DNA of 64,000 nt from a virus (IMGVR_UViG_2565956830_000005:18930-82929), one strand, 5' to 3'. Positions 1,632 through 45,098 are shown, counted from the stretch's first letter. The notes: generated by a model from the letters alone, not told the origin. A program made the numbers and translations.

Positions 1632-1644
1632 GTGGCGGAGCCTC

Positions 1645-3321
1645 CTATCTGAGGTTGGTGTGTGCGCGGAAGGCGGCGTTCCGGGCTCGTTGGCGAGCGG
1701 TGGCCGGGTCCTCAGCGGGGGCAGGAGCGGGCTGGGGCGTGGTCGGTTCGTCAGCGGACTCGGTGGCCGCGTCCTGTTCCGGCGCGGCGCTCTGCTCGGC
1801 ATCGGTCTGGGTCTGGGCTTGGACGAGGGCTTCGGCCTTGCGGCGGACGTAGTCGATCCAGGCCTGTGCGCCGGTGCCGTCGAGGAGCATCTGGGAGAGG
1901 GCCTGGCTGGTGGCGTCGACCTGGTCGTCGTGGGCCCCGTTCGGGAATTCCGCGGCCTCGTTGATGAGCTTGTCCGGCTCGAACAGGGCGATCTCCCCCG
2001 TCGGCAGGAAGACGTTGCCGGCCTCAATGAGCGGGGCGACGGCGTTGGCCCGGGCGTACTTGCTCTCGGTCGGGGTGACCTCGACGATGCCGGGGATCTT
2101 CGATTTGAGGGTGTTGATGACGGCGGTGCCGTTGGCCTTGTCCTCGACGTACTTCGCCGTGGCCTGGGGCCAGCGCGCCACCATCGCCTTGAACGCGGTC
2201 AAGGTCTCGGTGAAGGTGAGGCGCTTGCGGATCTGGTCCAGGAGGTAGACGTTCGCGCCGCGCCGCGCCCAGACCTGGCCCACCACGAAGTCCGAGCTCT
2301 TCGTGTCCTTGAAGGCCATGTCCCACGACATGACGAGCCCATCGGACTCCTCGACGCGGTAGGCGCCCGGGACGGTCGGGTGCTGGGACCACAGCGGCAC
2401 GCTGTAGCGGCGCCACCACTGACGTCGCCACACGTCACCGGCGTCGGGCGACGGCCGCCCCTGGTACAAGGCGTTGAAGACTCGCGTACCCGCTGTGATC
2501 CGGATCGCTTCCCACTGCGCAGTGGTGCGGCCCCGGGCCGACTTGAGCCACTCCCCAGGCGACCGGCCGAGTGCGTCGGTCTGTCCCTTTTCGGGGTCGT
2601 GGTCGGCGAGGGCAGGAATGTTGATGACCCGCCAGCGGTGCCCGTCCTCGGCGGCGATAAGACGGCCTGCGAGGTCGTCCTCGTGCCACCGGGTCAGGAT
2701 CACGATCACGGGCGCGCCGCTTGAGAGGCGCGTCGACCCGACGCTCTGCCACCAGCCCCAGACACGGTCGCGGTAGTACGCGCTGTCCGCCTGCTCCTTG
2801 TCGGCGAACGGGTCGTCGATCACGAGTGCGTCGACTCGACGGCCCGTCAGGGAGCCCTTGAGGCCTACACAGATGACGCCGCCGCGGTGGCCGGCGAGCT
2901 GCCAGCGGGACGCGGCGCCGTTGTCCCGCGCGATCCGCAGGCCCAGGTCGAGGCTGCCTTCGTCGCCGTTGTAGGTGGTGACCCAGTTGCGGATGTCCCT
3001 GCCGAATTCCTCGGCCAGCGGTTTGTTGTAGGAGACGATCCCGATCTTCAAGTCGCGGTTGCGGTGCAGAGCCCACAGCGACCCGGTCTTGGTGACGCGC
3101 TGGCTCTTTCCCTCCTGCGGAGGCATCGAGACGATCAACCGGGAGTCGGGCGTGCTGTACGCCCACGCGACTGCCTCGTCGACCAGGTCGAGCGCCAGCG
3201 TCTGCAGCGTGTCCGGCTCGACGGCCTTGGCCAGCGCGCCAGGGGTTGGCCACCGGTCGGCGTCGGGCCGGGGTTCGAATGAGCGGGCTGCGTATTCGGC
3301 CCAGTTGAGTGTGGCGGCCAT
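1645..3321 (-). CDS. terL: Terminase large subunit
   Basis: Walker A-like MPPQEGKS, Walker B LVIDDP, nuclease motifs SWDMAFK and FPNGAHDDQVDA; lies between small subunit and portal. Confidence 0.95.
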   Translation of the reverse strand: MAATLNWAEYAARSFEPRPDADRWPTPGALAKAVEPDTLQTLALDLVDEAVAWAYSTPDSRLIVSMPPQEGKSQRVTKTGSLWALHRNRDLKIGIVSYNKPLAEEFGRDIRNWVTTYNGDEGSLDLGLRIARDNGAASRWQLAGHRGGVICVGLKGSLTGRRVDALVIDDPFADKEQADSAYYRDRVWGWWQSVGSTRLSSGAPVIVILTRWHEDDLAGRLIAAEDGHRWRVINIPALADHDPEKGQTDALGRSPGEWLKSARGRTTAQWEAIRITAGTRVFNALYQGRPSPDAGDVWRRQWWRRYSVPLWSQHPTVPGAYRVEESDGLVMSWDMAFKDTKSSDFVVGQVWARRGANVYLLDQIRKRLTFTETLTAFKAMVARWPQATAKYVEDKANGTAVINTLKSKIPGIVEVTPTESKYARANAVAPLIEAGNVFLPTGEIALFEPDKLINEAAEFPNGAHDDQVDATSQALSQMLLDGTGAQAWIDYVRRKAEALVQAQTQTDAEQSAAPEQDAATESADEPTTPQPAPAPAEDPATARQRARNAAFRAHTNLR

Positions 3322-20053: not shown

Positions 20054-20607
20054 TGGGAGCGGAAGGGGTTGGGGAGGTCTCCTGCCGCGATTGAGTGGAC
20101 GATCGCGGCGACCTCACGGGCGCCGTCCGGGGTGTCGGGCGCGTGGATGGTGAAGACGCGGGTGCGCGGGTTGTTGACCATCAGTTCCCAGCCGCTGTCC
20201 GCGTAGAGGGCGACGGCCAGGCCTGCCGCGTTGTCCCAGCCCCACCGGGGGCCGCCTTCGAGGGGCTCCACGGCCACGCCCATGCGGACGTGGGAGCCGG
20301 TGATGGTGAGCCCGGCCTCGGTGAATGCCTGCGTCAACGCGCGGTGGAGCTCGTTGATTTCGTCGAGCTGGCGGTTCGTCGTGGGCCGCCGGTACTTGTC
20401 GGCGGTGGCCTCGGCGGCTGCGGTGATGAGGCCACCGAGTCGGCCCAGGCGGTCTTCTCGGGGATGCCCGTGCGCGGCGGCGGTCTCGTGGAGGGCGTCG
20501 AGGAGGTGTGCGGCCTCGGCGATGACGCTCGGCACGTACAGGGCGCGCAGGCCCGCGTACCAGGTGGTGATCTTGTTGGTGGAGTGCTCGGTGGGTGGTG
20601 CTTGCAC
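20050..20607 (-). CDS. Hypothetical protein
   Basis: 185 aa, GAGGA RBS, GTGA overlap. Confidence 0.7.
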   Translation of the reverse strand: MQAPPTEHSTNKITTWYAGLRALYVPSVIAEAAHLLDALHETAAAHGHPREDRLGRLGGLITAAAEATADKYRRPTTNRQLDEINELHRALTQAFTEAGLTITGSHVRMGVAVEPLEGGPRWGWDNAAGLAVALYADSGWELMVNNPRTRVFTIHAPDTPDGAREVAAIVHSIAAGDLPNPFRSQ

Positions 20608-20623
20608 GGTGGTGGTCCTCTGG

Positions 20624-20854
20624 TCAGGTCGCCTTGATGATCAAGGCGATGACGATGACTGCGATCACCACGACGAGGATCCGGGCCTGTGCCAGGTCGA
20701 GCTGGTACGGCACCGGCTTGATGATCTCGCCGTAGGGGTGGTCGCCACCGTGCTGCTCATCGCGATGCTGCTGCCCGTGCCGCTCGGCTGCGACTTCGAG
20801 TGCGTACGGGCGCGAATCGGCCCGGCAGACGGGGCAGCTGTACAGGTGCGGCAT
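20624..20854 (-). CDS. Small zinc-finger protein with C-terminal TM helix
   Basis: CPVC...HRDEQH, then ILVVVIAVIVIALII. Confidence 0.75.
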   Translation of the reverse strand: MPHLYSCPVCRADSRPYALEVAAERHGQQHRDEQHGGDHPYGEIIKPVPYQLDLAQARILVVVIAVIVIALIIKAT

Positions 20855-20883
20855 TGCGTCCTGCTCTCAGGGTCGGGTGCAGG

Positions 20884-20929
20884 TGGTAGATAGAGCACGG
20901 TAGACGACCGGTAGATATGGGCGGTAGAT
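20884..20929. repeat. Four 8-bp direct repeats YGGTAGAY
   Basis: TGGTAGAT 20884, CGGTAGAC 20898, CGGTAGAT 20909, CGGTAGAT 20922; intergenic. Confidence 0.8.
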
Positions 20930-20947
20930 GTCGTTTGACCTGGGCTT

Positions 20948-22114
20948 CTACCCCCTTCCAGGAGAGGCCGGAGCAGGGTTGGGAGGAGGGGTGTGACCGG
21001 GGGTGCGGGTGGGGCCTCTGCGGCCCGCGAGCCAGGCGCCCAGGAGCCGCTCGAACGGGACCCCCTTCCGGGGGCCGGCGGGGGCCTCCTCCGCCCGGCC
21101 GGGGGCCACTCCCGCCACCGGCCCGGGGGCCCCCTCGGGCGATGCCTCGGGGAGGCTCTCCGTGGGAGGCACCGGGAGTACCCCGGGAGCGGGCTCTGGC
21201 GCGTGGTTCTGTGAGGCCTCGGCGAGCAGCTGGGCGACGCTGTTGGTCGCGGCGGTCAGCGGCGCCCCGAGAGCGGCCACGAGTTCGTCGGCGTGGACCC
21301 CATGGGTCGGTCCCCGGCCGCTCCCTCGGATCTGCATCGTCTTGACGGGGATACCGAGACGGGCGCAGTGCTCCCGCAGCGCCTCCACCGTCCACGCCTC
21401 GGGGACCGCCCCCTCATCGATGAGCGTCGCCAAGTGAACGCCCCTACGCCCCTCCGTCACGGCGGCAGAGACCCGGGCGCAGACGAGGTGCAGCAGCCAC
21501 AGGCCGGCCGCGCGGACCTGCGCCGTGTCCGGCGCGGCGGACCGCGCTTCCCCGGCCTGCGGCCCTGTTTCCCCACCGGCCGCCGGCTCCGTGCTGGCCG
21601 TGCGTCGGCCGTTCTTGTCGTACTGGGCGGTCAGCCACGCGGCCACGGCCCACCACACGGCCACCCACGGCAGCAGGGCGGCGAGATCCGGAGCCACGGC
21701 GTGCCAGCCGCGCTCGATGGGCCGGTGAGTGAAGCAGTAGACGACCCAGGCGGCGAACGCCACGCCGATCAACTTGTTGGGTGCCAGCAGCGCCGCCGCA
21801 GTCCAGCTGTTCTTCTTGCCGCCCTTGGCCTTCGCGGTGGCCGGCTTCCCCTGCTCCCCGTCTGCCGGCTTCCCTCCTGGAACACCAGCCCCGGCCAGCA
21901 TGTCTCCTTCCCCGACCGCGCTGCTCTTCGCCGGCTTGTTCTTCTCCTTGCCCTTCCCGCTGCTCTTGGCCGACGCGCGCCCGGGTAGATGCCGCGCGCC
22001 CTGGCACGCCCGCTGCACACCGCCCACGAGGCGGCGCGCCAGCAGGCCGCTACCACGCACTTCGTCCCCGACGAGGACCACCAGGGCGCGCCAGACACTG
22101 ATCGTGATCTTCAT
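20948..22114 (-). CDS. Two-TM membrane protein with C-terminal putative winged helix
   Basis: TMs LIGVAFAAWVVYCF and LLPWVAVWWAVAAWL; GVHLATL...WTVEALREHCARLGIPVKTMQI...GPTHGVHADEL; TGATG overlap at the start. Confidence 0.7.
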   Translation of the reverse strand: MKITISVWRALVVLVGDEVRGSGLLARRLVGGVQRACQGARHLPGRASAKSSGKGKEKNKPAKSSAVGEGDMLAGAGVPGGKPADGEQGKPATAKAKGGKKNSWTAAALLAPNKLIGVAFAAWVVYCFTHRPIERGWHAVAPDLAALLPWVAVWWAVAAWLTAQYDKNGRRTASTEPAAGGETGPQAGEARSAAPDTAQVRAAGLWLLHLVCARVSAAVTEGRRGVHLATLIDEGAVPEAWTVEALREHCARLGIPVKTMQIRGSGRGPTHGVHADELVAALGAPLTAATNSVAQLLAEASQNHAPEPAPGVLPVPPTESLPEASPEGAPGPVAGVAPGRAEEAPAGPRKGVPFERLLGAWLAGRRGPTRTPGHTPPPNPAPASPGRG

Positions 22115-22566
22115 CAGTTGCCGGTCCAGTGAGAGATGGTGATCCGGAACGCGTTGAGGACGACTGCGCAGACACCGCCGGCTTCCACCAGAGAGGCCGA
22201 GGCCATGAGCGCGAGGACCGCGGTGAGTCCCTTGCGGTTCCCCAGAGGGTGGAAGTAGGCGGTGAGTCCCAGGCAGGCGCCGAGGCCGGCCGGTCCGAGT
22301 GCTGGGATGCCGGCGCCGTCGAGGGCCGATGACGGAATCGTGCCGATCCCGGTGATGACATCGGCCCAGCTGTTCCCGGCGGCGAGGAACATCGTGCCGG
22401 TGAGGATGCCGAAGACCGCGATGCGTTCCTTGGTGTTGATCTTGACGTGGTTTCCCACGCCCAGCCACAAGAGCACGCCCATCACGGCAGCGATCCCGGA
22501 CAGAGTCCAGGAACCGGCCCAGTTGCCCTTGGCCAGGTCAGCGGTGGGAGAAGCGAGGGTGTACAT
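22114..22566 (-). CDS. Multi-pass membrane protein
   Basis: 150 aa, about four Gly-rich hydrophobic segments. Confidence 0.75.
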   Translation of the reverse strand: MYTLASPTADLAKGNWAGSWTLSGIAAVMGVLLWLGVGNHVKINTKERIAVFGILTGTMFLAAGNSWADVITGIGTIPSSALDGAGIPALGPAGLGACLGLTAYFHPLGNRKGLTAVLALMASASLVEAGGVCAVVLNAFRITISHWTGN

Positions 22567-22577
22567 CGTGGGGCCTT

Positions 22578-23705
22578 TCAGCGCGGGCCAGGGCCGTACC
22601 AGGCGACGGCGACAAGAGCGGATGCCAGGGGAACGCGGACGAACCAGCGCACGAGCGCCGGTGAGGCCTTGAAACGCCTGTCGATCAGCCAGTACAGGCC
22701 CCCGCAGATCGCGGCCGACGTCGACAGGAGCGCGATGCCGGAGGCGTCCAGGCCGGCATAGGCGCCGTACTGGTTGAGGATCTGCACCCCGTCCGGCGCC
22801 AGCCCGGGCGCCACGTACGCGGCGAACACTGAGGCCACGACGCGGCCGATGATCCCGCCGGGCAGATACCGGACGACGCCCTGCACACCGAGGACGCGCC
22901 AGGTGCCGTAGCCGCCGGCGCAGGCGAGGGTCAGGCCGATGGCGTCGGTGGCTTGGTGGTCGGCGGCCGGGAGGAACGCGCCGATCGCGTCGACCAGGCC
23001 GATGACGTACCCGAAAGCGCCGGCGGACGCGGTGAACAGGAGCGGCTTGACGTAGCTCCGGCTCGGGGTCGCCTGCAGTGTGGGTGTTTTGCCGGACGGT
23101 GTCTTCTTCCGGCCGCCCGGACGCCCGGGTTTGCTCGGTGCGGCCGGGCGGCTGCTGGGCACTTCGGCGTCCAGGTCGGGGATGTCGAGTTGCTCGTCGC
23201 AGTCCAGGCAGATCGACGCGACGTGCTCCCCGGTGGGCTGGGCGTGGACGGGCACGGTGCGCGCGTGTGGGCAGTCCGGCGGCTCTGTCTGTTCCGGCTG
23301 TGCAGGCCTGTTGAGCCTTTTCCGCCACCACTCGGGGAGCAGGTCGGCCCCTCGCAGACGCAGAGGATCCACGTCGTCCTCCTCCTGGTCGTCATCGTCG
23401 TCCGGTATCTGAGCGGCGGTGGCTGCCGGTGCCGTAGGAGGTGCGGGCTGTGCGGGAGGCATGGGCGGTGCGGCAGGTGCGGTCGGTGCCCGGAAGCCGG
23501 GAGGGCTGCTGAGCATGGTGGGCGCGGGCGGTGTGGCAGGCGCGGGCGGCATCGGCGGGGCGCTGGGTGCCGGGGGTGTGCTGGGCGCAGGCGGTGGCTT
23601 GTTGGGCACCGTGGGTGTACTGGGTGCCGGCAGCGGCCGGTACCCCAGGAAGTCCATCCACCAGTCGTCCGGATCCGGTGCACCAGGCTGCGCGCTGCCA
23701 CTCAC
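22578..23705 (-). CDS. Pro-rich protein with CPH...CxxC motif and C-terminal TM helices
   Basis: GTGA overlap start; PAP repeats, acidic patch, four to five hydrophobic segments. Confidence 0.7.
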   Translation of the reverse strand: MSGSAQPGAPDPDDWWMDFLGYRPLPAPSTPTVPNKPPPAPSTPPAPSAPPMPPAPATPPAPTMLSSPPGFRAPTAPAAPPMPPAQPAPPTAPAATAAQIPDDDDDQEEDDVDPLRLRGADLLPEWWRKRLNRPAQPEQTEPPDCPHARTVPVHAQPTGEHVASICLDCDEQLDIPDLDAEVPSSRPAAPSKPGRPGGRKKTPSGKTPTLQATPSRSYVKPLLFTASAGAFGYVIGLVDAIGAFLPAADHQATDAIGLTLACAGGYGTWRVLGVQGVVRYLPGGIIGRVVASVFAAYVAPGLAPDGVQILNQYGAYAGLDASGIALLSTSAAICGGLYWLIDRRFKASPALVRWFVRVPLASALVAVAWYGPGPR

Positions 23706-23884
23706 CACGGAACCCCCAAGCCCAGCCCGTAGGTGACCAGCAGGAGTTCGGCGACTGCGTACCCGGCGCAGTAGAGCAGGTCGCGGAGGTTGTGATTGCC
23801 TGCGGCCCGCGCGGCGTGGCCGATGGCGCAGGCGCCCAGGCCCGCTGCGAGCAGGAAGCCAAAGATTTGGGTGAAGGGCGGCAT
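23702..23884 (-). CDS. Small two-TM protein
   Basis: 60 aa, TAAGGA RBS. Confidence 0.7.
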   Translation of the reverse strand: MPPFTQIFGFLLAAGLGACAIGHAARAAGNHNLRDLLYCAGYAVAELLLVTYGLGLGVPW

Positions 23885-23893
23885 GGCGTGTCC

Positions 23894-24121
23894 TTAGTGC
23901 AGGAGTGTGGCGGCGGTGGTGCAGGCTGCCGCGGTAGCGGAGAGGGTGGCTGCCGTACGGGCGCGTCCGCGCGCGCAGGCCAGCAGTGCGAGGGCGATGG
24001 CCGCACCGTCGGTGCATACGGCGGCCTGAGGAGTCGTCAGGCCGGCCAGTACGCACCAGTGCCAGCCCTCGCAGACCAGCGCCACGACGTTCTTGTCGGG
24101 CTCGGCCTCCGGCGGCGTCAT
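23894..24121 (-). CDS. Small hydrophobic protein
   Basis: 75 aa, ATGA overlap with the upstream ORF. Confidence 0.55.
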   Translation of the reverse strand: MTPPEAEPDKNVVALVCEGWHWCVLAGLTTPQAAVCTDGAAIALALLACARGRARTAATLSATAAACTTAATLLH

Positions 24122-24246
24122 TGCGGGGTCCAGCAGACGACGGCAAGGACCATCGCGGCGATGACCGCGACGAGGGCGTACTGCCGCAGCGCGCCGCTGC
24201 GCGTGTCCAGGGCGACGAGGCCCGCGGCCGGAATGACGTAGGACAT
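24118..24246 (-). CDS. 42-aa TM micro-protein (not in ORF track)
   Basis: MSYVIPAAGLVALDTRSGALRQYALVAVIAAMVLAVVCWTPQ; ATGA overlap with the next gene. Confidence 0.5.
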   Translation of the reverse strand: MSYVIPAAGLVALDTRSGALRQYALVAVIAAMVLAVVCWTPQ

Positions 24247-24295
24247 TCAGGGGCTTCCGGGTTGCGGGGCCGCGGTGCACGCCCCGGTGTGCAGG

Positions 24296-26293
24296 TCAGG
24301 TAGGGCATGGCACGGCCAGTTCGGGGCGCGGCAGCGTGTAGCCCCCGGCAATGAGGTCCGCGGCTTCCTTACGGCGCTCGGAGGCGGTGGAGACGGACAC
24401 TCCGAGAGCACCGGCGATGACGTCCAGCTGGATCGCGTCTGGGTCCCCGGCACCGTCGGTGAGGATCATGCGGGCGACCCTGCGGGCGTCCCGCTCGCGC
24501 GGGGTGAGGCGGGCGTGGTCTTCCATTTCGACCGCGAGAGCCTCGGCTTCGGCAACCCGGCGGCGCATTCCGACCGCGTCGAGCCGGACCGTCTCCGCGG
24601 CGGCCGCTTCCTCGGCCGCACGCCGTTCCGCGAGGGCCGCTTCCTCGCTGATCTTGGCCCTACGGCGGCGCGCTTCGGCGTTGGCCAGCTCCGCTTCGAC
24701 CGCACGACGGTCCGTTTCGGCAGCAGCCGCTCGCGTTCCGGCCGCGCGCCTTTCCATTTCGGCCGCAGCCTCCAGACGCCGGCTGTTCTCGACCGATTGG
24801 TCGGCGGCCTGACGCTGTTCGGCGGCGAGCTGCTGCTCCGTTCCGAGGGCACGCTGGCGCGTTCCGAGGGCAGCGGCCCGCGCATCGGCAGCTTCCTTCT
24901 CCCGTCGGGCGGCCTCGACCTCGAGGCGCTCCGTTTCGGCCAGCGCTACGGCGGTCTCCTCGTCGGCCAGGGCCGCCATGTGGCGGTCGGCAGCAGCCGC
25001 GGCCTCGAGCTGCTCGGCTTGCTGCGCCTTGGTCGCGGCGGCGAGCCGGTCCTCGGCGGCCTGGAGCTGGGCTGCGGCGGCGGTCGCCGACTCGAGAGCC
25101 TCCGCCTCCTGGACAGCGACGCGTTCCTCGGCTTCGGCCACAGCGGTGGCCTTGGCGTACGCGGAGCGGGCAGCGACCGAAGCGACCGACTTCCGGGCAT
25201 CGAGCCCTTCCTCGGCCTCGGCAACCTCGGCCTGCTTCGCGAGGAGCAGGATCCTGGCGTCCGCGGTCCGGATCTGGGCGGCGAGCGCCTCCTGCTCCTG
25301 GCGCTCCTCCTGCTCCCGCTCGCGCTGCTGCTCGGCGGCGCGGGCCTGCTCGGGGATGGCGAGGGCCTCGTCGACGGTCAGCCCGTACGGCGCCATGATC
25401 ATGGGGAGGCGGGCCTCCATCGGGGCGCTCTTCCAGCCCTTGGGGTACTGCTTCCCCTTGGGGTAGATGCGGTCGAGTGCAGCCCGGTAGATGAGCTGGT
25501 CACGGCGCCTGTCTACCGCCTCGTCGTACGACCGGATCCCCAGGAGGACCATCCGCCGGTGGAGGCTGAAGGAGCCGGCCGGATCGAGGATCCAGCGCTC
25601 GAGAGGGATGCCGTCGCGGCGGGTGCCGGCGGCGACGTCCTCGGCGCGGGTGACCTGGATGATGACCCGCCGGGCAGCCTCGACCGCGGTCACGAACATG
25701 ACCGGGATGACCGCGTGCATCCCGACACCGACAGGGTCCGCGCTCAGCGGGCGGCCACCGGACGCGGCGTTGAAGACGATCGTCGCGACCGTGAAGCCGT
25801 GCGCTGCGAGGCGGAGGATGGGCCAGCGGATCCGGCGGTGGGTGAGGACGAGGTCCAGGGCGTAGAGGACGACGATGCCGACGTCGACACCGACCGGGAA
25901 GACCTGCGCGAACTCGCCAAAATGGTGCGCCTCGCCCAGCTTCACGAGGGACCGGTAGGAGCCGGTGAAGCCGATCCCGGCGAGGACCAGGCCGCCGATG
26001 ACCGCGAACACGTTGAGGCCCCTGCGGGCTGCTCCCGAAACAGCGTCCGACGTACCCGGAACGCCGGGGGCCGTCGTCGGAACGGCACCCGGCGCCTCCG
26101 GAACGGCCACCTCTTTCCCACGCTCGACGCGCGGTTGGAAGCGCGCGACGGGGACCTTGGGGCGGCCGTGGCCGGGCGCGGCCGGAACGGATTCCGGCGC
26201 GCTCGGAACGCTGCGGTGCGGGGTCGGAACGGCCGCCTGCGTCCTCGGAACAGAGCCGCCGCGCCAGAGTGTGAGGCGTGTGAGGAGAGTCAT
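24296..26293 (-). CDS. DUF2637 membrane protein with long coiled coil and C-terminal HTH (Spd-like)
   Basis: GIGFTGSYRSL..LGEAHHF...FPVGVDVGIV...ATIVFNAA...MHAVIP; Ala/Glu heptads; IQLDVIAGALGVSVSTASERRKEA. Confidence 0.85.
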   Translation of the reverse strand: MTLLTRLTLWRGGSVPRTQAAVPTPHRSVPSAPESVPAAPGHGRPKVPVARFQPRVERGKEVAVPEAPGAVPTTAPGVPGTSDAVSGAARRGLNVFAVIGGLVLAGIGFTGSYRSLVKLGEAHHFGEFAQVFPVGVDVGIVVLYALDLVLTHRRIRWPILRLAAHGFTVATIVFNAASGGRPLSADPVGVGMHAVIPVMFVTAVEAARRVIIQVTRAEDVAAGTRRDGIPLERWILDPAGSFSLHRRMVLLGIRSYDEAVDRRRDQLIYRAALDRIYPKGKQYPKGWKSAPMEARLPMIMAPYGLTVDEALAIPEQARAAEQQREREQEERQEQEALAAQIRTADARILLLAKQAEVAEAEEGLDARKSVASVAARSAYAKATAVAEAEERVAVQEAEALESATAAAAQLQAAEDRLAAATKAQQAEQLEAAAAADRHMAALADEETAVALAETERLEVEAARREKEAADARAAALGTRQRALGTEQQLAAEQRQAADQSVENSRRLEAAAEMERRAAGTRAAAAETDRRAVEAELANAEARRRRAKISEEAALAERRAAEEAAAAETVRLDAVGMRRRVAEAEALAVEMEDHARLTPRERDARRVARMILTDGAGDPDAIQLDVIAGALGVSVSTASERRKEAADLIAGGYTLPRPELAVPCPT
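26036..26251. repeat. CGGAAC motif array with 21-bp phasing inside the DUF2637 gene
   Basis: GGAAC at 26058, 26079, 26100, 26184, 26205, 26226, 26247; variant GAAAC at 26037. Confidence 0.8.
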
Positions 26294-26336
26294 GGAAGGC
26301 CCTTCCGATGAACGAGGACGCAGGGAATGGGAACGG

Positions 26337-26957
26337 TCAGCAGCCGGCTTGTTCGTCAGCGCGCTGCGACGGCATCAGCCGCCGGGCCTGTGCCGTCGCG
26401 GTCTCCGCGTCGGGCCAGCAGTACAGCTCCGAGTCGGAGAGGAGGGCTGAGAAGCGCCAACCGTCCGGAGTCCAGGCCCGGCGTCCACGCACCGCGTAGG
26501 AGTTCGCCTCGACCACGGCGAACTGGCGACCGCCGGATGGCCGGCGCACGTACAGGCCGTAGCCCGGCTCCCACAGCCGCAGTTCCGTCAAGGAGTCGAC
26601 GAGCGCCTGCAGTTCGGCGATCCGGGCTCCAAGCTCGTCGGGAGTGGACTCGCCTGCGTTCGGCTGGCTGCCGCCGCTGGTGTCCTTCTCGTCGCCCGGG
26701 CCGAGGTCGATCTCGTCGAGTGCCGGCAGACCGATATCGATGAACTCGACGTCGGGGTGGATGTAGTCGGCGCTCCACGTCGACCAGCCCTTGGCCCCTC
26801 CGACGGTGCGGATCTTCGCCGCCCATGCACGCAGGACGTCGTCCGTGGCGGCCTTGATCAGTTCCTCGGCCGGAGCATCGTTGATCTCCTGCGCAACGAT
26901 GGCAGCCAGCCGCTCACGGGGAGTCCATCGGTCTGGATCCCATTGGCCGGCGGTCAC
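26337..26957 (-). CDS. Hypothetical protein
   Basis: 206 aa, GTGA overlap. Confidence 0.7.
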   Translation of the reverse strand: MTAGQWDPDRWTPRERLAAIVAQEINDAPAEELIKAATDDVLRAWAAKIRTVGGAKGWSTWSADYIHPDVEFIDIGLPALDEIDLGPGDEKDTSGGSQPNAGESTPDELGARIAELQALVDSLTELRLWEPGYGLYVRRPSGGRQFAVVEANSYAVRGRRAWTPDGWRFSALLSDSELYCWPDAETATAQARRLMPSQRADEQAGC

Positions 26958-27607
26958 TGGCTCTCACCGCCCTCGGCGAGGCGGGCGCCGATCCAGCGGG
27001 CGGCGGCGGTGACGGTGCGCAGCGGGTTGCCGCCGCGGCCGCGGCCGTCGTTGGCGTGCAACCAGTGGAGGCGCTGTCCGGCGCCGTACTGGCCGTCGGG
27101 GTGGGGCACGGCGAGCGCCGTCCACACGACGCCGCCCTGCGCTCCACGGCTCTGCGTGATCTCCCCGACCACCACGTCCGCGGTGACCCTCTTGACCTTG
27201 AGTGCGGTGACGACGAAGTCGTACGGCTCCGGATCATGAGCACGGCCGACGCCGAACCACGGCTGCGCGGGCCACAGAAGCAGCCCGGCCTTCTGACGCG
27301 GGGGCAGACCGTACGCCACCCACCTGGTGTCCGTGAGCGTGGTGCCGGTGTCGTCGGTCTTCTCACCGTAGATCACCTGGGCCGCGCCGCAGGAGTGGCA
27401 CACGATGCGCACAACCGTCTGGGCGAAGCTGCTGCGGTGCGAGCAGAACTCATCCGAGCAGCCGTGCTTGACGACAGCGCCCATGTGGCCACCCGAGCGG
27501 GCCACGTCCTCGTCGGTGCGGACCCCGATGTCCCACGCAGGCCGCTTACAGCCACGCTGGTGCTGGGGCGTCTCCCAGCCCAGGTAGGTATCGAGTGCGC
27601 TCTTCAC
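26954..27607 (-). CDS. Cys/His-rich hypothetical protein, paralog of 61759-62373
   Basis: HxxGCxxPAW, HxCxxxxCxH, VCxSC, GLxLWP and AAxWI shared by both. Confidence 0.75.
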   Translation of the reverse strand: MKSALDTYLGWETPQHQRGCKRPAWDIGVRTDEDVARSGGHMGAVVKHGCSDEFCSHRSSFAQTVVRIVCHSCGAAQVIYGEKTDDTGTTLTDTRWVAYGLPPRQKAGLLLWPAQPWFGVGRAHDPEPYDFVVTALKVKRVTADVVVGEITQSRGAQGGVVWTALAVPHPDGQYGAGQRLHWLHANDGRGRGGNPLRTVTAAARWIGARLAEGGESQ

Positions 27608-28392
27608 AGGCCACCGTCCTGGACCTCGTCGACGTCGCCACGCTCGTCCGCAACATCGGCGTCCCGCGCCTCGCCCATCTGCAGGACGTACTCGTCGGAC
27701 GCACCGTGCCCATACCGGGCGTCGAGGTCGTCGGCCTCCAGGCAGATCGGGTGTCGGGCCTCAGTGGGTTCATCCCACGGGGCAGTCAGCTCGATGCCGA
27801 AGATGGTCCGCAACTCGTCCTGCGACACCAGGTCCTGCGAGATGAGAGCCGGGGTACGGCCACGCTCCCATCGCTGCCCGGACCGGAGCCGGACAACGAG
27901 CGCCGCGCGCTGCCCCTCCGACTCGGCGACCCGAGCTCGCGCCTCGCGCGCCTTCTCACACATCGCCATGCCCCGCTGGACCGCCTGCTTGTGCAGGCCG
28001 TCCAGCTCGGTAACCCGGTTGATGAGCCACTCCACAGCAGGAGTCAGCGTTTCCCCCAACTCCATGGGGACCTTGCTCGCCTCCCCGTTCGGCGAGAGCG
28101 CGCCGCGCATGTTCAGCGCATCGTTCTGAAGGGCTACGAGACGGGCATGGCGCCGATCGCGCTGCGCCTCCAGGCGGCGGATCTCCGCCACCAGCGCGGG
28201 CACGTCGTCCCCCGCCAGCCGGTTCCACTCGTCAGCAGTGGCGTCGCCGCCGAACTCGTACAGATGGGCCCCACGCTCCTCAGCCTCCGCGAGACGCCCT
28301 GCCGACAGCGCCTGCGGCTCCTGGCCCACGGGCATCGGCAGCGCACCCAACGCGAGCACTGCGGCCTCAGTGGTCTTGAGTGGTTCGGTCAC
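27604..28392 (-). CDS. Hypothetical coiled-coil protein
   Basis: ALGALPMPVG, DVPALVAEIRRLE; coupled overlaps. Confidence 0.7.
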   Translation of the reverse strand: MTEPLKTTEAAVLALGALPMPVGQEPQALSAGRLAEAEERGAHLYEFGGDATADEWNRLAGDDVPALVAEIRRLEAQRDRRHARLVALQNDALNMRGALSPNGEASKVPMELGETLTPAVEWLINRVTELDGLHKQAVQRGMAMCEKAREARARVAESEGQRAALVVRLRSGQRWERGRTPALISQDLVSQDELRTIFGIELTAPWDEPTEARHPICLEADDLDARYGHGASDEYVLQMGEARDADVADERGDVDEVQDGGL

Positions 28393-28997: not shown

Positions 28998-29354
28998 TCA
29001 GATGTGGTCGCCGACGCGGGTACGGCTCCACCGGGTGTGGGTCACGCACAGGGGCCGGCCACTGGACAGCCGCAGCTCCCAGCAGGCGGCGGCGTGGTGC
29101 GAGACGTGGCGGGTGCCGGCGCGGACGTCGCGGCACGTCGTGGTGGTGCGGGTCTTCTTGCCGCTGCGCCGGGTCTTCGTCTTGCACACGTGCCGGTAGC
29201 GGGTCTGCGTCGTCCAGGTCGTGCGCGCCGCCTGGTAGGTCTTGGCAACGACTTGGCCGTGCACGGGGCGGCTCACCGTGGTGGTGCCGCAGGCGGTGAG
29301 CGCGAGGGCGACGGCGGTGAGGACTGCGCCGAGCGCGGCGAGGGTGCGGCTCAT
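28998..29354 (-). CDS. Basic lipoprotein
   Basis: MSRTLAALGAVLTAVALALTAC lipobox; ATGA overlap with the terD stop. Confidence 0.75.
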   Translation of the reverse strand: MSRTLAALGAVLTAVALALTACGTTTVSRPVHGQVVAKTYQAARTTWTTQTRYRHVCKTKTRRSGKKTRTTTTCRDVRAGTRHVSHHAAACWELRLSSGRPLCVTHTRWSRTRVGDHI

Positions 29355-29929
29355 GCCGAGTACTGCTTCGCGAGCTGGAGGAGCTGGTCGCGGCTGCCGG
29401 CGTTGTCGAGTTCGTTGACGGCGGTGATCGCCCAGTCGCTGCCGGTGCGCTGCGCGCGGGCCATGACGCACGCGTTGTTGTGGGAGTCGATGTCCGGCAT
29501 GTATTCGCCGAGCTTCCGGCCGCCCGGGGCGCCGTCGTAGACGTTGAGGGTGATGCCCTCGATGTTGGCGAAGCTGACGCCGGGCTTGAAGGCGGAGACG
29601 ATGAAGACGAGGGTGTTGATGCTGGCGGGGAGGTCGGTCAGGCGGGCGATGATGGTCTCGTCGTCTCCGGTGGCCTTCCCGGTGCGGTTGTCGCCGAGGG
29701 TGACCAGGGAGCCGTTGTCGAAGGCGTCCTCGTTGTCGAACCAGCACAGCCGCTTCGGGCGCCCGTCCTCCAGGGCGACGGCGACCAGGTCGAGGTCGGT
29801 ACCGACCGCACGGCGCAGGCGCCCCATGAGGCCCTTCTGTCCTCCGCCGGACGTCTTCCACGCGACTCCGACCCTCAGGACGGTGACGCCGGTGAGGCCT
29901 TCGGTCTGGTTCTTCAGCAGGCTGAGCAC
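29351..29929 (-). CDS. terD: TerD/TerZ-family protein
   Basis: LRVGVAW, DLDL, GDNRTGKATGDDETI, LVFIVS motifs; GTG with GGAG RBS. Confidence 0.88.
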   Translation of the reverse strand: MLSLLKNQTEGLTGVTVLRVGVAWKTSGGGQKGLMGRLRRAVGTDLDLVAVALEDGRPKRLCWFDNEDAFDNGSLVTLGDNRTGKATGDDETIIARLTDLPASINTLVFIVSAFKPGVSFANIEGITLNVYDGAPGGRKLGEYMPDIDSHNNACVMARAQRTGSDWAITAVNELDNAGSRDQLLQLAKQYSA

Positions 29930-29994: not shown

Positions 29995-31368
29995 TCAGCG
30001 GCGTAGGACGGCGAGTTGGAGCGTGTCCTCGGTCCGGGGGTCGAGCAGCTGCGCGGTGGGCAGCGCAGCCGTGGCGTCGGACTCGGGCACTGGTACGGGC
30101 TCCAGGCGCGCCGTGTCGGCGGTGTGCTCGCCACGGGCGGTGCCGGTCCCGGTGGCGCGGCGGGTGCCGGTGCCGCGGAGGCGGATGCGGATCATGGACA
30201 GCGGGATCACGACGAAGGCCGTGGCGCCTCCAGCCCACAGGAGCGGGTTGCCGAGGAGGCCGCCCGCGAGGCTGACGAGGGTTCCCGCGGCCGCGCCGAC
30301 GAGCGCCAGGCCCCGGCGGCGTTCCCGCGTCATGGGGCTGATGACGGTCTTGCGCCCGCTGCGGCCGGTCCACGCCGTGTAGTGGCGTCCCAGCAGCCAC
30401 TCGCGGAGCATCGACCGCGTGTACAGGTACTTGTTGTAGAAGTTCAGCAGCGTGTACGGCACGAAGCCGAGCGCGGCTTTCTTCCAGCCGACGACGCGGG
30501 AGACCAGGTACATGGTCAGCGCGGTGTGGCCGGCGAACCAGTAGCCCATGTACCGGAACATCGACAGGTGCTGCCAGGTCGCCAGGTTGTAGACCACGAC
30601 GACGGCCCACCACCACAACGTGACCAGGTCGAACATCGCGGTACCGACAGTGAGGAGGGAGCGCCAGTTGAACATCAGGCGCCGGTAGCGGGCGACGTTC
30701 TGGAAGTAGCCGGCCGCCCACCGGGGCATCTGCGCCGTGTACTCGGCCCAGGTCTCCGGGTCGATCGTGAGCGTCAGGGCATCCGCGGTGTACCAGGCCT
30801 TGTAGCCGCCTTCGTGGAGCTTCCAGGTGATGTCCATGTCGGCGCTGATGAGCCCGTTGGGAAACCCGCCGACCGCACGGACGACGTCCGTGCGGAAGGC
30901 GTACGAGGCGCCGGTGAGGACCTGGAGGCGGCCGACCTGGCGCTGGCACAGCCGCCACCACTGGCTGCCGAGGCTGTACGCGAACCGCCGCGCTTCGATG
31001 AAGAAGCCGGTGTCCTGCATGGGAAGGATCGACGAGCAGGTGGCGTCGTAGCCGCGCTCGATGTCGGCGACCATCAGCGGGATGCAGTCGGGCTCCGGCT
31101 TCGAATCGCCGTCGAACCCCACGATCACATCCGCCGTGATGTACGGCAGCGCATGGTTCTGGTTCGCCGCCTTGTCCGCGAACCTCGTCTCCAAAACCAG
31201 CGACGCACCCGCCTCACGGGCAACCTGCGCGGTGCGGTCCGTGCAGGAGTCCGCGACCACGATCAGCTGGGCGACTGGGTAGGGCTGGTCCAGGCATGCC
31301 CGGACCAGCTCCCCGATCGTCGCCTCTTCCTGGTGGGCGGGAATGAGGACGGCGATCGTCAGACTCAG
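29995..31368 (-). CDS. Membrane-embedded processive GT2 glycosyltransferase
   Basis: LIPAHQEE, ADSCTD, KA, FDGDS, SADMD and QMPRW motifs plus C-terminal TMs; start at CTG 31368 (after AGGAG) or GTG 31512. Confidence 0.9.
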   Translation of the reverse strand: MSLTIAVLIPAHQEEATIGELVRACLDQPYPVAQLIVVADSCTDRTAQVAREAGASLVLETRFADKAANQNHALPYITADVIVGFDGDSKPEPDCIPLMVADIERGYDATCSSILPMQDTGFFIEARRFAYSLGSQWWRLCQRQVGRLQVLTGASYAFRTDVVRAVGGFPNGLISADMDITWKLHEGGYKAWYTADALTLTIDPETWAEYTAQMPRWAAGYFQNVARYRRLMFNWRSLLTVGTAMFDLVTLWWWAVVVVYNLATWQHLSMFRYMGYWFAGHTALTMYLVSRVVGWKKAALGFVPYTLLNFYNKYLYTRSMLREWLLGRHYTAWTGRSGRKTVISPMTRERRRGLALVGAAAGTLVSLAGGLLGNPLLWAGGATAFVVIPLSMIRIRLRGTGTRRATGTGTARGEHTADTARLEPVPVPESDATAALPTAQLLDPRTEDTLQLAVLRR

Positions 31369-31481
31369 CCCCGGCCTCTCCTTCCGAGGAAGCGCAGGGC
31401 GCTCCCGGTGGCCCCCATCGCCAGGGACACCCCGGTCAGGAGCATCGCTCCGAACCCGGTGTGAGCCAGTCCGTTGTACAT
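31365..31481 (-). CDS. 38-aa LAXTG sortase-signal micropeptide (not in ORF track)
   Basis: AGGAGGA RBS; MYNG-LAHTG-FGAMLLTGVSLAMGATGSAL-RFLGRRGRG. Confidence 0.75.
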   Translation of the reverse strand: MYNGLAHTGFGAMLLTGVSLAMGATGSALRFLGRRGRG

Positions 31482-31508
31482 GTGAGTTCCTCCTATGAGT
31501 CACGGCCG

Positions 31509-32771
31509 TCACAGCCGCTCGATGTGCGAGGCGACAGGCATGACGCCCCGCGTGTCCAGCACGAAGTTCGCCTGGTCGGCGACGCGCTGGAGGTCAAAGG
31601 CCGAGTGCGCGGTGAGCAGCACGACCGCGTCGAAGTGCCCGCAGTTCAAACCGCTGGCGACGGCGAGCGGGATCTCGCAGAGAACGTCGAGGTCTTCCTT
31701 GGGGAAGAACGGGTCAACGGCGACGACGTAGGCGCCCGCCTCCCGCAGGAGCTCGACGACCTCGGCAGCCGGCGACTGCCGCATGTCAGCGGTGTCCGCC
31801 TTGTACGCCTGCCCCAGGGCGAGGATCCGCGCCCCCTTCAACGCCTGCCCGCGCACGTTCAACGCGTCCTGGAGGCGCCGGGCCACGTACTCGGGCTGCG
31901 ACTCGTTGATGTCCTGCGCAAGCTCGACAAGGCGAAACGGCTGCCCGTGCGCAGTGCGCAGGTGGTGCGCCAGGTAGACCGGGTCGACCGGCAGGCAGTG
32001 CCCACCTACCCCCGGGCCGGGCACGAACTGCATGAACCCGAACGGCTTCGTGCCAGCGAGCCCGAGAGTGCGCCAGACGTCCACACCCAACGTGTGCGCC
32101 ATGCGCGACAGTTCGTTGACGAGGGCGATGTTGACGTGCCGGAAGGTGTTCTCGAAAACCTTCGCCAGCTCCGCCTCCTCCAGCGACCCGGCGACGACGA
32201 TGTTCTGCGTGATCCCGGTGTAGAACTTGTCGACCTGGTCCAGGCAGCCAGCGGTGAGCCCGGAGACGATCTTCGGGGTGTTCGTGAACCGCCACTCCTC
32301 GTTGCCCGGGTCGATGCGCTCCGGGCTGAACCCGACGTGGAAGTCCTCCCCGGCCTTCCAGCCGGTGGCCTCCTCCAGGATCGGGACCAGAACGTCGCGG
32401 GTCGTACCCGGGTGGGTGGTCGATTCCAGGATCACGGTGGCGTCGGCCTTGAGACGCGCGCCGAGAACCTCGGCGGCCTCCCGGACGTAACTCAGGTCGG
32501 GCTGCCGATCCTTGAGCGGCGTCGGCACCGCGATGACCGCGACGTCGAAGTCCTCGATCCGGGTCTCACTGCGCGTCGGCTGGTACCGCCCCGACTCCAG
32601 AGCAGCCGCGAGAGTGTCGTCGGAGACGTCCTCGACGTACGAGGACCCGAAGTGCAGCCGCTCATACCGGTGTTGGTCCGGCTCGAAGCCGACAACCTGA
32701 TGGCCGGCCTCAACGGCAGCCATGGCCAGGGGAAGGCCGACATAGCCCTGCCCCATGACAACGAGTTTCAC
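31509..32771 (-). CDS. UDP-glucose/GDP-mannose dehydrogenase family (UDP-HexNAc dehydrogenase type)
   Basis: GQGYVGLPLA, VPTP, LESTTHPGTT, FSPERIDPGN, KVFENTFRHVNIALVNE, GPGVGGHCLPVDP, AYKADTADMRQSP. Confidence 0.95.
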   Translation of the reverse strand: MKLVVMGQGYVGLPLAMAAVEAGHQVVGFEPDQHRYERLHFGSSYVEDVSDDTLAAALESGRYQPTRSETRIEDFDVAVIAVPTPLKDRQPDLSYVREAAEVLGARLKADATVILESTTHPGTTRDVLVPILEEATGWKAGEDFHVGFSPERIDPGNEEWRFTNTPKIVSGLTAGCLDQVDKFYTGITQNIVVAGSLEEAELAKVFENTFRHVNIALVNELSRMAHTLGVDVWRTLGLAGTKPFGFMQFVPGPGVGGHCLPVDPVYLAHHLRTAHGQPFRLVELAQDINESQPEYVARRLQDALNVRGQALKGARILALGQAYKADTADMRQSPAAEVVELLREAGAYVVAVDPFFPKEDLDVLCEIPLAVASGLNCGHFDAVVLLTAHSAFDLQRVADQANFVLDTRGVMPVASHIERL

Positions 32772-38217: not shown

Positions 38218-39018
38218 TCACTGTTCCTGGGGGTCTGGGGTGGTGGGGCTCAACGTCGGTAGCGGCGGGACTACTTGGGCGAGCCAGCTGGTGGGTTCTG
38301 TCGTGAAGTGGGGTGCTGGGCTGCTCTCCCACCACGACCTGGTGGCGAGGACCGTGTTTTCGGTGCTGGTGCGTTTGTCGGTGTACGTCGTCTCCCGCTC
38401 GCCGAGGTGGCGCACGGTGACGCGTCCGCGTTTGCAGCCGTCGGGGTAGTCGCTCCAGTTCACGCCTTTCTCGGACCACAGCAGTTCCTGCATGCCGGCG
38501 CTGTTCACGCCGTGGAGGCGTTGGTGGGAGAAGTGGGCCTGGGCGGCCATGCTGATGCTGTTGCTGACGGCGTCGCGTTGCCGTCCGATGAAGTAGTTCG
38601 CGACCTCGACCGGGTCGTTGATGGTGAAGACGCGGGCGTCGAAGAGTCCTCGTCGGCCGGGGCGGCGTTCGTTGAGGACGGCGGTCGCGAGGGATGCGGC
38701 GATGCTGAGCTGTTTCGCGATGACGCCGCCGAACCAGGGCTGCGTGGTGGGGGTGTCGAAGTCGGTGATCAGGATGCTGATTTCGTCGGACTGGCTGTAA
38801 GCGAAGCGGGCGCCGGCGATCTCGGTGCAGAGGGCTTCGGCGACGGCGTCCATGTCGGCCATGAACGCCTCGTCGAACGGCCGCTGCGCGCCGGCCAGGT
38901 AGGAGTGGAAGGCGCGGCCGTCGACGCGGAGTACGGCGTGTGTGCGGCGGGGCAGCACAGTCCGATAGGGGGCCTCGTACTGCTTCATGCGCTCGGCGAG
39001 CGGGGCGTTGTCGCTCAT
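38218..39018 (-). CDS. thg1: Thg1-like tRNA(His) guanylyltransferase / 3'-5' polymerase
   Basis: RMKQYE, LRVDGRAFH, RPFD, YSQSDEISI, FDARVF, RQRDAVSNS. Confidence 0.92.
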   Translation of the reverse strand: MSDNAPLAERMKQYEAPYRTVLPRRTHAVLRVDGRAFHSYLAGAQRPFDEAFMADMDAVAEALCTEIAGARFAYSQSDEISILITDFDTPTTQPWFGGVIAKQLSIAASLATAVLNERRPGRRGLFDARVFTINDPVEVANYFIGRQRDAVSNSISMAAQAHFSHQRLHGVNSAGMQELLWSEKGVNWSDYPDGCKRGRVTVRHLGERETTYTDKRTSTENTVLATRSWWESSPAPHFTTEPTSWLAQVVPPLPTLSPTTPDPQEQ

Positions 39019-43451: not shown

Positions 43452-43861
43452 TGCTGACCTCCGTCGTCGATCGTGCGGGCTGTAGCGAGCGCGGCTTCGT
43501 CGCGGTGGCGAGCCTTCGCCTGGAGGTGGTCGTAGTTGACCGCGCGGGCCAGGACGAGAGCGGGTTCGTCGGCGCTCACTTCGGTGCCGTCGAGGGCATC
43601 GGCGGTCTGGTCGAGGAGCTTGGCGAGGGCGCGGCCGACGCCGGGGTGCATGGCGCAGATGTACTGGGCATCGGTCGGCTCGTGGTGGGGGTCGGTGGTG
43701 GTGCTGGCGACGCGGTACGGGACGCCGATGTTGCTGATGGTCTGCGGGTAGTGGCGTGCCTGTTCGTTGACGATGTACCAGGGGCCGCGGTTGTCGCCGA
43801 GCGCCTGGACGAGGTCGTCCAGCTTGGCTGCCGCGGCACGGATCTCTTCGGTAGGTGTCAT
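43448..43861 (-). CDS. Hypothetical protein (GPW...DAxYIxAMHP family)
   Basis: Paralogous to the C-terminus of 43858-44778. Confidence 0.7.
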   Translation of the reverse strand: MTPTEEIRAAAAKLDDLVQALGDNRGPWYIVNEQARHYPQTISNIGVPYRVASTTTDPHHEPTDAQYICAMHPGVGRALAKLLDQTADALDGTEVSADEPALVLARAVNYDHLQAKARHRDEAALATARTIDDGGQQ

Positions 43862-44778: not shown

Positions 44779-45098
44779 CAGCTGGTGCCTTCTGTGGGTG
44801 GGATGAGGGTGAGGTCGGCGCCCCACATGTCGCGTGGGCTGGGGTGGTACTCGATGTGCGCGATCTCGTACCGGCTGCGTGGCCCGCCGTAGTCGATGAG
44901 GATGTGGTCGCCGCGTTCGATGCCGGGGCCCCAGCCGGAGACGCGGAGTTGCTGGAGGTCGTCGGGTTCGTGGTGGACGACGTAGTCGCGGCCCCAGCCG
45001 AGGTGATCGCGCGTGTAGTCGTGGACGCGCGGCTTCCGCCCTGGTGCGGGAGAGGGCTCTGGCGGGGCGGTCTCGCGGCGGCGCAAGAAGTTCAGCAT
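44778..45098 (-). CDS. Hypothetical protein
   Basis: HDYT...WG...GWGPGI..GD...PRDMW. Confidence 0.7.
   Translation of the reverse strand: MLNFLRRRETAPPEPSPAPGRKPRVHDYTRDHLGWGRDYVVHHEPDDLQQLRVSGWGPGIERGDHILIDYGGPRSRYEIAHIEYHPSPRDMWGADLTLIPPTEGTS

Follow-up and report, generated by a model that had tools for sequence, protein, structure and literature searches.

In small Streptomyces plasmids, clt is made up of 8-bp TRS repeats which are read by the C-terminal winged helix of TraB. Spread (spd) genes are arranged in operons, for instance spdB3-spd79-spdB2-orf108-traB in pSVH1 and spdB1-3 in pJV1. Thoma et al. (2015, PMC4447253) describe the SpdB2 protein of pSVH1 as an oligomeric pore-forming membrane protein, essential for spreading, which binds peptidoglycan as well as double-stranded DNA. 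For SpdA and its sps site (SpdA2 in pIJ101), a role in linking the DNA substrate to the translocation apparatus has been proposed (PMC4447253; PMC4170104), and in the linear plasmid SLP2, Spd proteins are reported to have a part in intramycelial movement (PMC13245405). Plasmid-phages with TraB, such as pFP4, are already known from the sources available. The locus compared here with these systems is an eight-gene module at positions 20624-26293 of a 64,000-nucleotide stretch of viral DNA (IMGVR_UViG_2565956830_000005:18930-82929; hereafter the window), which corresponds to G000:C144:18976-82975 of an 11.76-Mb, 202-contig genome of ~70% GC. The element is a tailed prophage spanning the first ~85 kb of its contig. 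That the module lies in a tailed phage had been recognised in an earlier note made from the sequence, and this agrees with the large terminase gene at 1645-3321 of the window (phrog_38, E 4.1e-104). The minus strand carries all the window genes, and the closest relatives of the window proteins were all from Streptomyces.

Read from sequence comparison, the module appears to be a variant of the Streptomyces Spd type. Its core cassette, comprising an SpdB2-like gene (P1 in this prophage), P5, P6, P7, a repeat array and P8, is conserved between prophages, the phage VWB and Streptomyces plasmids. P7 belongs to a family without a name; it is, according to its structural model, a winged-helix protein anchored in the membrane, and is not a detectable relative of TraB. 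The reading preferred here, possible although somewhat short of probable, is that the module forms an Spd-type membrane platform where the element's own DNA would be tethered by P7 at the array, in the service of intramycelial spread or partition. The earlier note had proposed that the phage may use this module for spread without virions. In the available text of Thoma et al. (2015, PMC4447253) it is already suggested that phage SpdB2 homologues might spread phage DNA, and such homologues are flagged there for phiC31 and VWB with the genes unnamed; the core of the spread idea is therefore not new. The features of the module are as follows.

24296..26293 (-): P1, SpdB2-type lead protein, 665 aa, with a DUF2637 domain, a coiled-coil-like stretch and a helix-turn-helix (HTH)-like block
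24118..24246 (-): P2, single-transmembrane (TM) peptide, 42 aa, from the GC3 frame, with one TM-like segment
23894..24121 (-): P3, hydrophobic protein, 75 aa, with a TM-like segment
23702..23884 (-): P4, two-TM peptide, 60 aa, with TM-like segments
22578..23705 (-): P5, ~375 aa, GTG start, four TM segments at the C-terminus
22114..22566 (-): P6, polytopic membrane protein, 150 aa
20948..22114 (-): P7, 388 aa, two TM helices and a winged-helix domain
20884..20929 (-): repeat array, RTCTACCR in four direct copies, after the P7 stop and before the P8 start
20624..20854 (-): P8, 76 aa, N-terminal CxxC/His zinc-ribbon-like segment and C-terminal TM anchor

As the earlier note had stated, the genes are eight consecutive membrane or hydrophobic protein genes without Walker motifs. 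The open reading frame (ORF) listing and GC3 frame analysis placed P1-P8 in a row on the minus strand, a 19-residue hydropathy scan gave TM-like segments in all eight proteins, and the Walker A pattern was present in none of the eight. Three of the gene junctions overlap (P2/P3 ATGA, P4/P5 GTGA and P6/P7 TGATG); the genes form a translationally coupled operon of membrane proteins, as described for spd genes (PMC4447253). P5 begins with a Pro-rich acidic region and ends in a four-TM domain, with a Cys/His motif (CPH...CLDC) and a basic linker in between. P6 had a weak match to phrog_29318 (4.6e-4), and P8 (TM score 2.88) matched phrog_32136 at 2.9e-4; NCBIfam gave no match for any of the eight proteins. 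Cytoplasmic segments of nucleic-acid-binding character are predicted in four of the proteins, namely the HTH-like block of P1, the winged helix of P7 and the Cys/His motifs of P5 and P8.

Several of the small TM peptides are of a size similar to that of holins, which might indicate a host-takeover or 'kil' function, in which the membrane or cross-wall is permeabilised or remodelled (pock-like growth arrest, help with lysis) and DNA is not involved. The formation of pores and the promotion of spheroplasting by pSVH1 SpdB2, and the toxicity of unregulated transfer genes (PMC4447253), would be concordant with this. A kil function leaves the four proteins with domains of nucleic-acid-binding type and the conserved cis array without an explanation, however, and the cassette does not lie beside the structural or lysis region; it was judged the least probable of the explanations considered here.

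P1 is classed as a DUF2637/SpdB2-type spread protein. Residues 96-257 matched the Pfam family DUF2637 at E 4.8e-32, the middle of the protein is a long Ala/Glu/Arg-rich stretch which looks coiled-coil-like by eye, and the C-terminal 66-aa block, with its HTH-like character, was 60-62% identical to plasmid homologues. This is the DUF2637-coiled-coil-HTH architecture that the earlier note had reported for the lead protein. P1 also matched two PHROG families of unknown function (phrog_32569 at 2.3e-114), and tblastn found homologues on 328 plasmid records, 315 of them from Streptomyces. In pJV1 (NC_001759), the 371-aa ORF after traB has a P1-like architecture, with a membrane domain, a Glu/Arg-rich coil and an HTH-like C-terminal end, and was matched by P1 at E 3.7e-9 (BLASTP, small database). 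This ORF is taken here to be spdB2 from the gene order and not from annotation; close homologues of its product bear the source name 'DUF2637 domain-containing protein' and, once, 'SpdB'. A perfect 12-nt inverted repeat, CCTGCGTCCTCG / CGAGGACGCAGG, flanks the P1 start codon (26236-26324), with its arms 65 nt apart.

The 147-aa ORF which follows the SpdB2-type gene of pJV1 (L022, 1778-2221), presumably spdB3, matched the Pfam family PycTM at E 1.6e-14, above the curated cut-off. As PycTM is the membrane domain of Pycsar effectors, a classical spread protein has this domain in common with a defence effector.

Ten related loci, four from IMG/VR and six from genomes, were compared with the module. 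P5, P6 and P7 were found in all ten and P8 in nine, the tenth locus being cut short, while P1 was detected by tblastn in six; flanking phage genes were common with the window in eight of the ten. Of the small genes, P2 had homologues by tblastn in L028 and L029, and conservation of P3 extended to L027, L028 and L029, with E-values of 8e-8 to 3e-23. For P4 no sequence homologue was detected by tblastn, and L027 has a 55-aa ORF in the corresponding position. In L023, L027 and L025 the lead gene encodes a different subfamily of membrane-plus-HTH protein, with weak similarity to the DUF2637 protein of pSCL3 (E 1.6e-4 to 8e-7) and, in L023, with HTH_17 at the C-terminus. L023 also carries a gene with a T5orf172/MUG113 (GIY-YIG-like) domain between its lead protein and P5 (7644-8495).

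The plasmid matches of P7 led to pSCL3 and a 312-kb plasmid, in both of which the gene order was a divergent GntR gene, with or without WhiB, a DUF2637 protein, a 345-434-aa protein, a ~150-aa protein, the P7 homologue and a ~80-aa protein. BLASTP matches to the plasmid cassettes were collinear with P1, P5, P6, P7 and P8, with E-values from 5.6e-16 (P5 against the plasmid L009) to 0.035, and of 1.9e-8 for P8, all obtained with small databases. The GntR gene lies upstream of the plasmid cassettes and had matches in eight of ten further genomic loci. The proposal of a plasmid-spread-like module was thus upheld, with an SpdB2-type lead protein and five genes collinear with plasmid cassettes downstream of GntR. 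Among 300 other genomes of the genus sampled, the P7 family was present in 11, in five of these on secondary contigs. Ten contexts were fetched from the sampled genomes; an SpdB2-like gene was found within 10 kb in nine of them, a terminase in none, and TraA/TraB in none by tblastn.

In VWB, gp24 is a DUF2637 protein with 45% identity to P1, and was its only phage match among 50,697 records. VWB gp26 belongs to the P7 family by profile comparison (hhalign 99.5%, E 1.5e-22), even though tblastn of P7 against the same 50,697 phage records gave no match. This sequenced temperate phage has the same cassette (gp24-gp26), with repeats after gp26 and no FtsK/TraB found; it differs in being a 49-kb phage of another lineage, in which the cassette genes are annotated as hypothetical. 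The distribution suggests, at the level of sequence, that the cassette moves between plasmids and temperate phages.

The likeness to the spd operons lies in the SpdB2/DUF2637 lead gene, in the short coupled membrane-protein genes and, for the plasmid copies, in the neighbouring divergent GntR gene of the TraR/KorA type. The gene order and the partners of the module differ from those of the spd operons, P5-P8 were not detectably similar to SpdB1 or SpdB3 of pJV1, and the module lacks an adjacent TraB and has instead a membrane-anchored winged-helix protein with an array of its own. The plasmid pFP3 and the plasmid-phage pFP4 share with the cassette the order GntR-WhiB-...-DUF2637, and their lead protein is 48-49% identical to P1. 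There, however, the DUF2637 gene is followed by a small ORF, a TraA-like protein and a 700-aa FtsK/SpoIIIE TraB, and P5-P8 are absent.

P7 consists of an N-terminal helix, a Lys-rich disordered linker, two TM helices, a winged helix (residues ~197-303) and a Pro-rich tail. The C-terminal motif quoted in the earlier note proved in family alignments to be the most conserved part of the protein. A word-indexed search returned only nine proteins, query included, whereas an exhaustive profile search with the TM-plus-domain core gave 160 cluster representatives at E <= 0.001, 57 of them at <= 1e-10 and 25 at <= 1e-30. The family has no Pfam family, and among the 76 members scanned no Pfam family was common to more than one. 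The winged helix of P7 (residues 197-303) was modelled by AlphaFold2 with pLDDT ~95-97 from 76 sequences, with the secondary-structure order H-S-H-H-S-S, and the same topology was obtained from nine sequences with pLDDT ~84. In the VIA alignment, the model matched Cdc6 (1fnn_B, Z 6.8, root-mean-square deviation 3.2, 87 aligned), PadR-type chains (Z 6.0-6.5), and MarR and ORC chains; the rows covering the domain were almost all winged-helix proteins. Z values below 8 are middling, and the fold class is a generic one. Lys/Arg-rich flanks place the winged helix in the cytoplasm according to the positive-inside rule.

The earlier note had likened this C-terminus to the winged helix of TraB. The winged-helix fold itself was retained by the model, but the resemblance to TraB was not: P7 had no BLASTP match to TraB, and hhalign of the P7 family with TraB (pJV1, pFP3, pFP4) gave probabilities of 0.2% and 0.1%, for a TraB alignment which, with three sequences, is shallow. 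In the structural comparison proposed in that note, Foldseek with both models gave no match in the Protein Data Bank (PDB) at E <= 0.001, and FtsK-gamma and TraB were absent among the matches listed, an absence that holds for the listed rows only. A P7 profile had no match to PDB sequences at E <= 10, and in the ESM Atlas the only matches were Actinomycetota clusters without names and winged-helix models of a generic kind. P7 showed no FtsK/SpoIIIE ATPase domain by Pfam and no Walker A.

In its layout P7 nevertheless resembles the TraB/clt system: it is anchored in the membrane, its winged helix is C-terminal, and 8-bp direct repeats lie next to its gene. P7 might on this account be a TraB relic that has lost the ATPase, with the repeats acting as a clt that is pumped by a co-resident TraB, so that the phage parasitises plasmid transfer; TraB-size FtsK-like ORFs do occur elsewhere in the host genome. 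Lengths among the 150 listed of the 160 family clusters were 108-434 aa, and none of those listed is therefore of TraB size or carries an ATPase domain. P7 has no detectable sequence or profile homology to TraB, the repeat sequence differs from that of clt, of which the array is a candidate counterpart only, and the plasmid copies of the cassette are also without an adjacent TraB. A TraB relic was considered very improbable.

The 8-bp direct repeats noted after the gene of the two-TM protein were confirmed as four copies of RTCTACCR. They occur, from 20929 to 20884, in the order ATCTACCG, ATCTACCG, GTCTACCG, ATCTACCA, with spacings of 13, 11 and 14 bp. In the window as a whole RTCTACCR was observed 11 times compared with 2.9 expected, and none of 100 shuffles reached 11. 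For the looser motif RTCTMYC, with a background of ~0.1 per 300-bp window, none of 71 background windows of 300 bp in a 22-kb stretch reached four copies (maximum two). An unbiased count of the most repeated 7-mer, with one mismatch allowed, did not separate the array from the background in 70% GC DNA, and counts of the specific motif were used for this reason. Two further RTCTACCR copies lie inside the P1 coding region (25485-25518), in inverted orientation and 18 bp apart, and may merely reflect the codons of ...AVDRRRDQLIYR....

In six related prophage loci the sequence and position of the repeats were kept while the spacers varied, with four copies in five of the loci and three in L031; the P7 proteins of these loci were only 36-46% identical. 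In 14 of 20 loci, the 300 bp following the P7-family gene held at least three RTCTMYC copies; some of the loci counted had served to derive the motif, and many of them are related to each other. Downstream of the P7 homologue, pSCL3-type plasmids carry an array of 3-4 copies of ATCTAYC and L009 ~8 copies of RTC[TG]AC; L053 has seven copies of ATCT[CA]CC at spacings of 10-12 bp, and VWB has 6-8 copies of RTCTCCC at ~11 bp after gp26. L023 and L027, whose lead protein comes from the other subfamily and has a different C-terminal HTH, showed the array unchanged. The three loci without an array were those with the most divergent P7 winged helix, and both TCTCCC arrays (VWB and L053) were paired with a V-K-[IV] wing strand and not with M-Q-I-R or M-G-I-[QR]. 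These pairings are suggestive of an array that tracks P7, and not the lead protein.

The position of the array may alternatively reflect transcriptional control. P7 would then be a membrane-tethered transcription factor of the ToxR/CadC kind and the array an operator or activator site for P8 and the early genes downstream, with no movement of DNA. The array ends ~30 bp before the P8 ATG in the prophage family, stands directly before the ribosome-binding site of the next ORF in VWB, and lies 90-170 bp upstream of the P8 homologue in pSCL3-type plasmids; moreover, a winged helix with direct repeats is a common regulator arrangement, and the fold matches of P7 were mostly transcription regulators. 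No sigma-70-like promoter, and nothing relevant on the coding strand, was found in a promoter and terminator scan of 20400-26700, which is a crude scan for Streptomyces. ToxR and CadC have an N-terminal OmpR-type winged HTH, a single TM helix and an extracytoplasmic sensor, whereas P7 has a C-terminal winged helix after two TM helices joined by a short loop, no extracytoplasmic sensor domain and no OmpR-type Pfam match. A purely regulatory role would also leave the constant association with an SpdB2-type gene unexplained, and was rated as rather unlikely.

Short direct repeats at roughly helical spacing, beside the gene of their presumed binder and doubling as operator, are also a feature of ParR/parC centromeres, which the array resembles. 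ParR is a soluble ribbon-helix-helix protein with an actin-like motor, and the module has no such partner. With SpdA/sps the module shares an Spd-associated DNA-binding protein (predicted as such for P7) with a short repeated site at its own gene. The SpdA described in the available text of the papers cited above is, in contrast, small and soluble (~135 aa), with an N-terminal zinc-finger-like motif, and binds 12-bp palindromes, while P7 is an integral membrane winged-helix protein beside direct repeats.

The earlier note had described the module as lacking the TraB ATPase and had suggested a search of the rest of the element. In the host genome there were 17 matches to PF01580 and five to the TraB profile, none of them on the prophage contig, and a Walker A regular expression applied to prophage ORFs of at least 100 aa matched only a 1300-aa protein of tape-measure size. 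The lack of TraB was extended in this way from the module to the part of the prophage on the contig, beyond whose edge its left end lies. In VWB and in four related virus records, rated 100%, 90%, 96% and 100% complete, PF01580 was likewise absent at E <= 0.1 (0/5), and the TraBs of pFP3, pFP4 and pJV1 were detected as positive controls; the diversity of TraBs limits these negatives. For the plasmids the absence of TraB is not established. Five cassette-bearing secondary contigs had no PF01580 match at E <= 0.01, but the plasmids W01 and W02 had weak PF01580 matches at 52 kb and 95 kb from the cassette, and L059 (G039:C3) encodes a 701-aa P-loop protein (1198-3303; Walker A at residue 301) 6 kb from its cassette. 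The W01 and W02 matches were rejected as TraB, having only the P-loop in common with it (hhalign 1-2%). The 701-aa protein had no Pfam match and 5% hhalign probability to TraB, at the level of the P-loop, and may be a very divergent translocase. In L059, a 29-kb plasmid contig, the cassette is in another order (P6, P7 ... DUF2637).

A membrane cassette without a motor, carried by a prophage, could also serve in exclusion or defence. The Spd-like proteins would in that case block incoming plasmids or phages, for instance by engaging their TraB or by occupying sites at the cross-walls; an interaction of SpdB2 with TraB has been reported (PMC4447253), and other DUF2637 genes and TraB-size FtsK-like ORFs are present on other contigs of the host genome. 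However, PADLOC models matched none of the eight proteins, the module shares its strand and its long run of genes with the lytic-cycle genes, a self-encoded cis array is left unexplained by exclusion, and on plasmids the cassette stands where tra/spd operons are otherwise found, under a GntR repressor of the Kor type. Exclusion was regarded as improbable.

A DNA-tethering Spd-type platform is the most economical reading of four membrane-anchored proteins of nucleic-acid-binding character beside a conserved cis array. P1, P5, P6, P7 and P8 would assemble in the hyphal membrane or at cross-walls, and the winged helix of P7 would read the array and thereby tie the element's own double-stranded DNA to the platform, in the role proposed for SpdA and sps or for the C-terminus of TraB and clt in small plasmids. 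The tether would promote distribution of the replicon among hyphal compartments, i.e. intramycelial spread or partition, and would probably also autoregulate P8 and the downstream genes, with the array doubling as the P8 operator. Any motor would have to act in trans, whether as an FtsK-like protein of the host or as a resident TraB, unless none is needed. A bolder form of this proposal is that the cassette suffices by itself for Streptomyces phages and large plasmids to distribute their double-stranded DNA through the mycelium independently of TraB and of virions, with the P7 family as a new class of membrane-anchored adaptor that recognises the RTCTACC array and hands the replicon to the SpdB2-type pore at cross-walls. 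This form is doubtful, and was thought unlikely as a whole; if true, a temperate phage would be able to spread into adjoining hyphal compartments without producing particles.

Several points weigh against a tethering platform. Spreading in the characterised plasmids needs TraB, according to the available text of PMC4447253, and none was found in the phages. P1 alone was detectably similar to a classical Spd protein, as SpdB1 and SpdB3 of pJV1 matched nothing in the module, and tiny local databases underlie many of the E-values given for the collinear homologues. The binding of DNA by P7 is a prediction from its model. The array is 30-75 bp upstream of the P8 start, and could for that reason simply be an operator or promoter element. 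Among the 20 loci, one had two RTCTMYC copies after the P7 gene, two had one copy and three had none, and the covariation between the array and the winged helix is drawn from very few independent lineages.

Around the module, large genes of structural size lie upstream of the window on the contig, including the 1300-aa ORF of tape-measure size, all assigned by size and position only. A tyrosine recombinase gene (46604-48118; phrog_1 at 1.5e-38) is found in the middle of the prophage and not at an end; the C-terminal part of its product gave weak matches of the WhiB-like and HTH kinds. Chromosomal genes of an ordinary kind start near 66 kb of the window coordinates. Direct terminal repeats are present in a related IMG/VR genome of 86,390 bp, whose completeness is rated at 100%.

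Just upstream of the module are a TerD-domain protein (29351-29929, Pfam 2.8e-17), a family-2 glycosyltransferase (29995-31512, 2e-20), which was full-length in only three of the ten related loci, and a 420-aa protein (31509-32771) with an N-terminus that looks nucleotide-sugar dehydrogenase-like by eye; the dehydrogenase-like gene adjoins the module in eight of the ten loci. These three genes could be a phage-borne cell-envelope modification function. Two gene pairs, at 26954-28392 and 61759-63407, resemble paralogues within the prophage when their translations are compared: the first genes (217 aa and 204 aa) both start with a similar ...YL.W....RGC..PAW... motif, and the second gene is larger in each pair (262 aa and 345 aa). 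The genes at 38218-39018 and 43858-44826, one tRNA-His guanylyltransferase-like (phrog_4717, 5.8e-67) and one RNA ligase-like (phrog_14301, 7.1e-46), may together be a tRNA repair set.

The crossing and sharing of DNA between the hyphal compartments of Streptomyces is poorly understood; on small plasmids, studies have so far dealt only with TraB and some few of the Spd proteins. Apparently undescribed in the literature searched, which was that outside subscription journals, are the P7 family, the RTCTMYC array, the five-gene cassette of plasmids and phages and the consistent lack of TraB in the phages. The cassette is a compact and conserved candidate set of parts, with an SpdB2-type protein, its three membrane partners and a winged helix anchored in the membrane, and it supplies a candidate cis site for this winged helix and natural copies in VWB and in plasmids. 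With these parts, the published suggestion of spread by phage SpdB2 proteins is now directly testable. If the winged helix does bind the array, it would define both a new protein family, so far without a name (160 clusters), and a new kind of tether between replicon and membrane.

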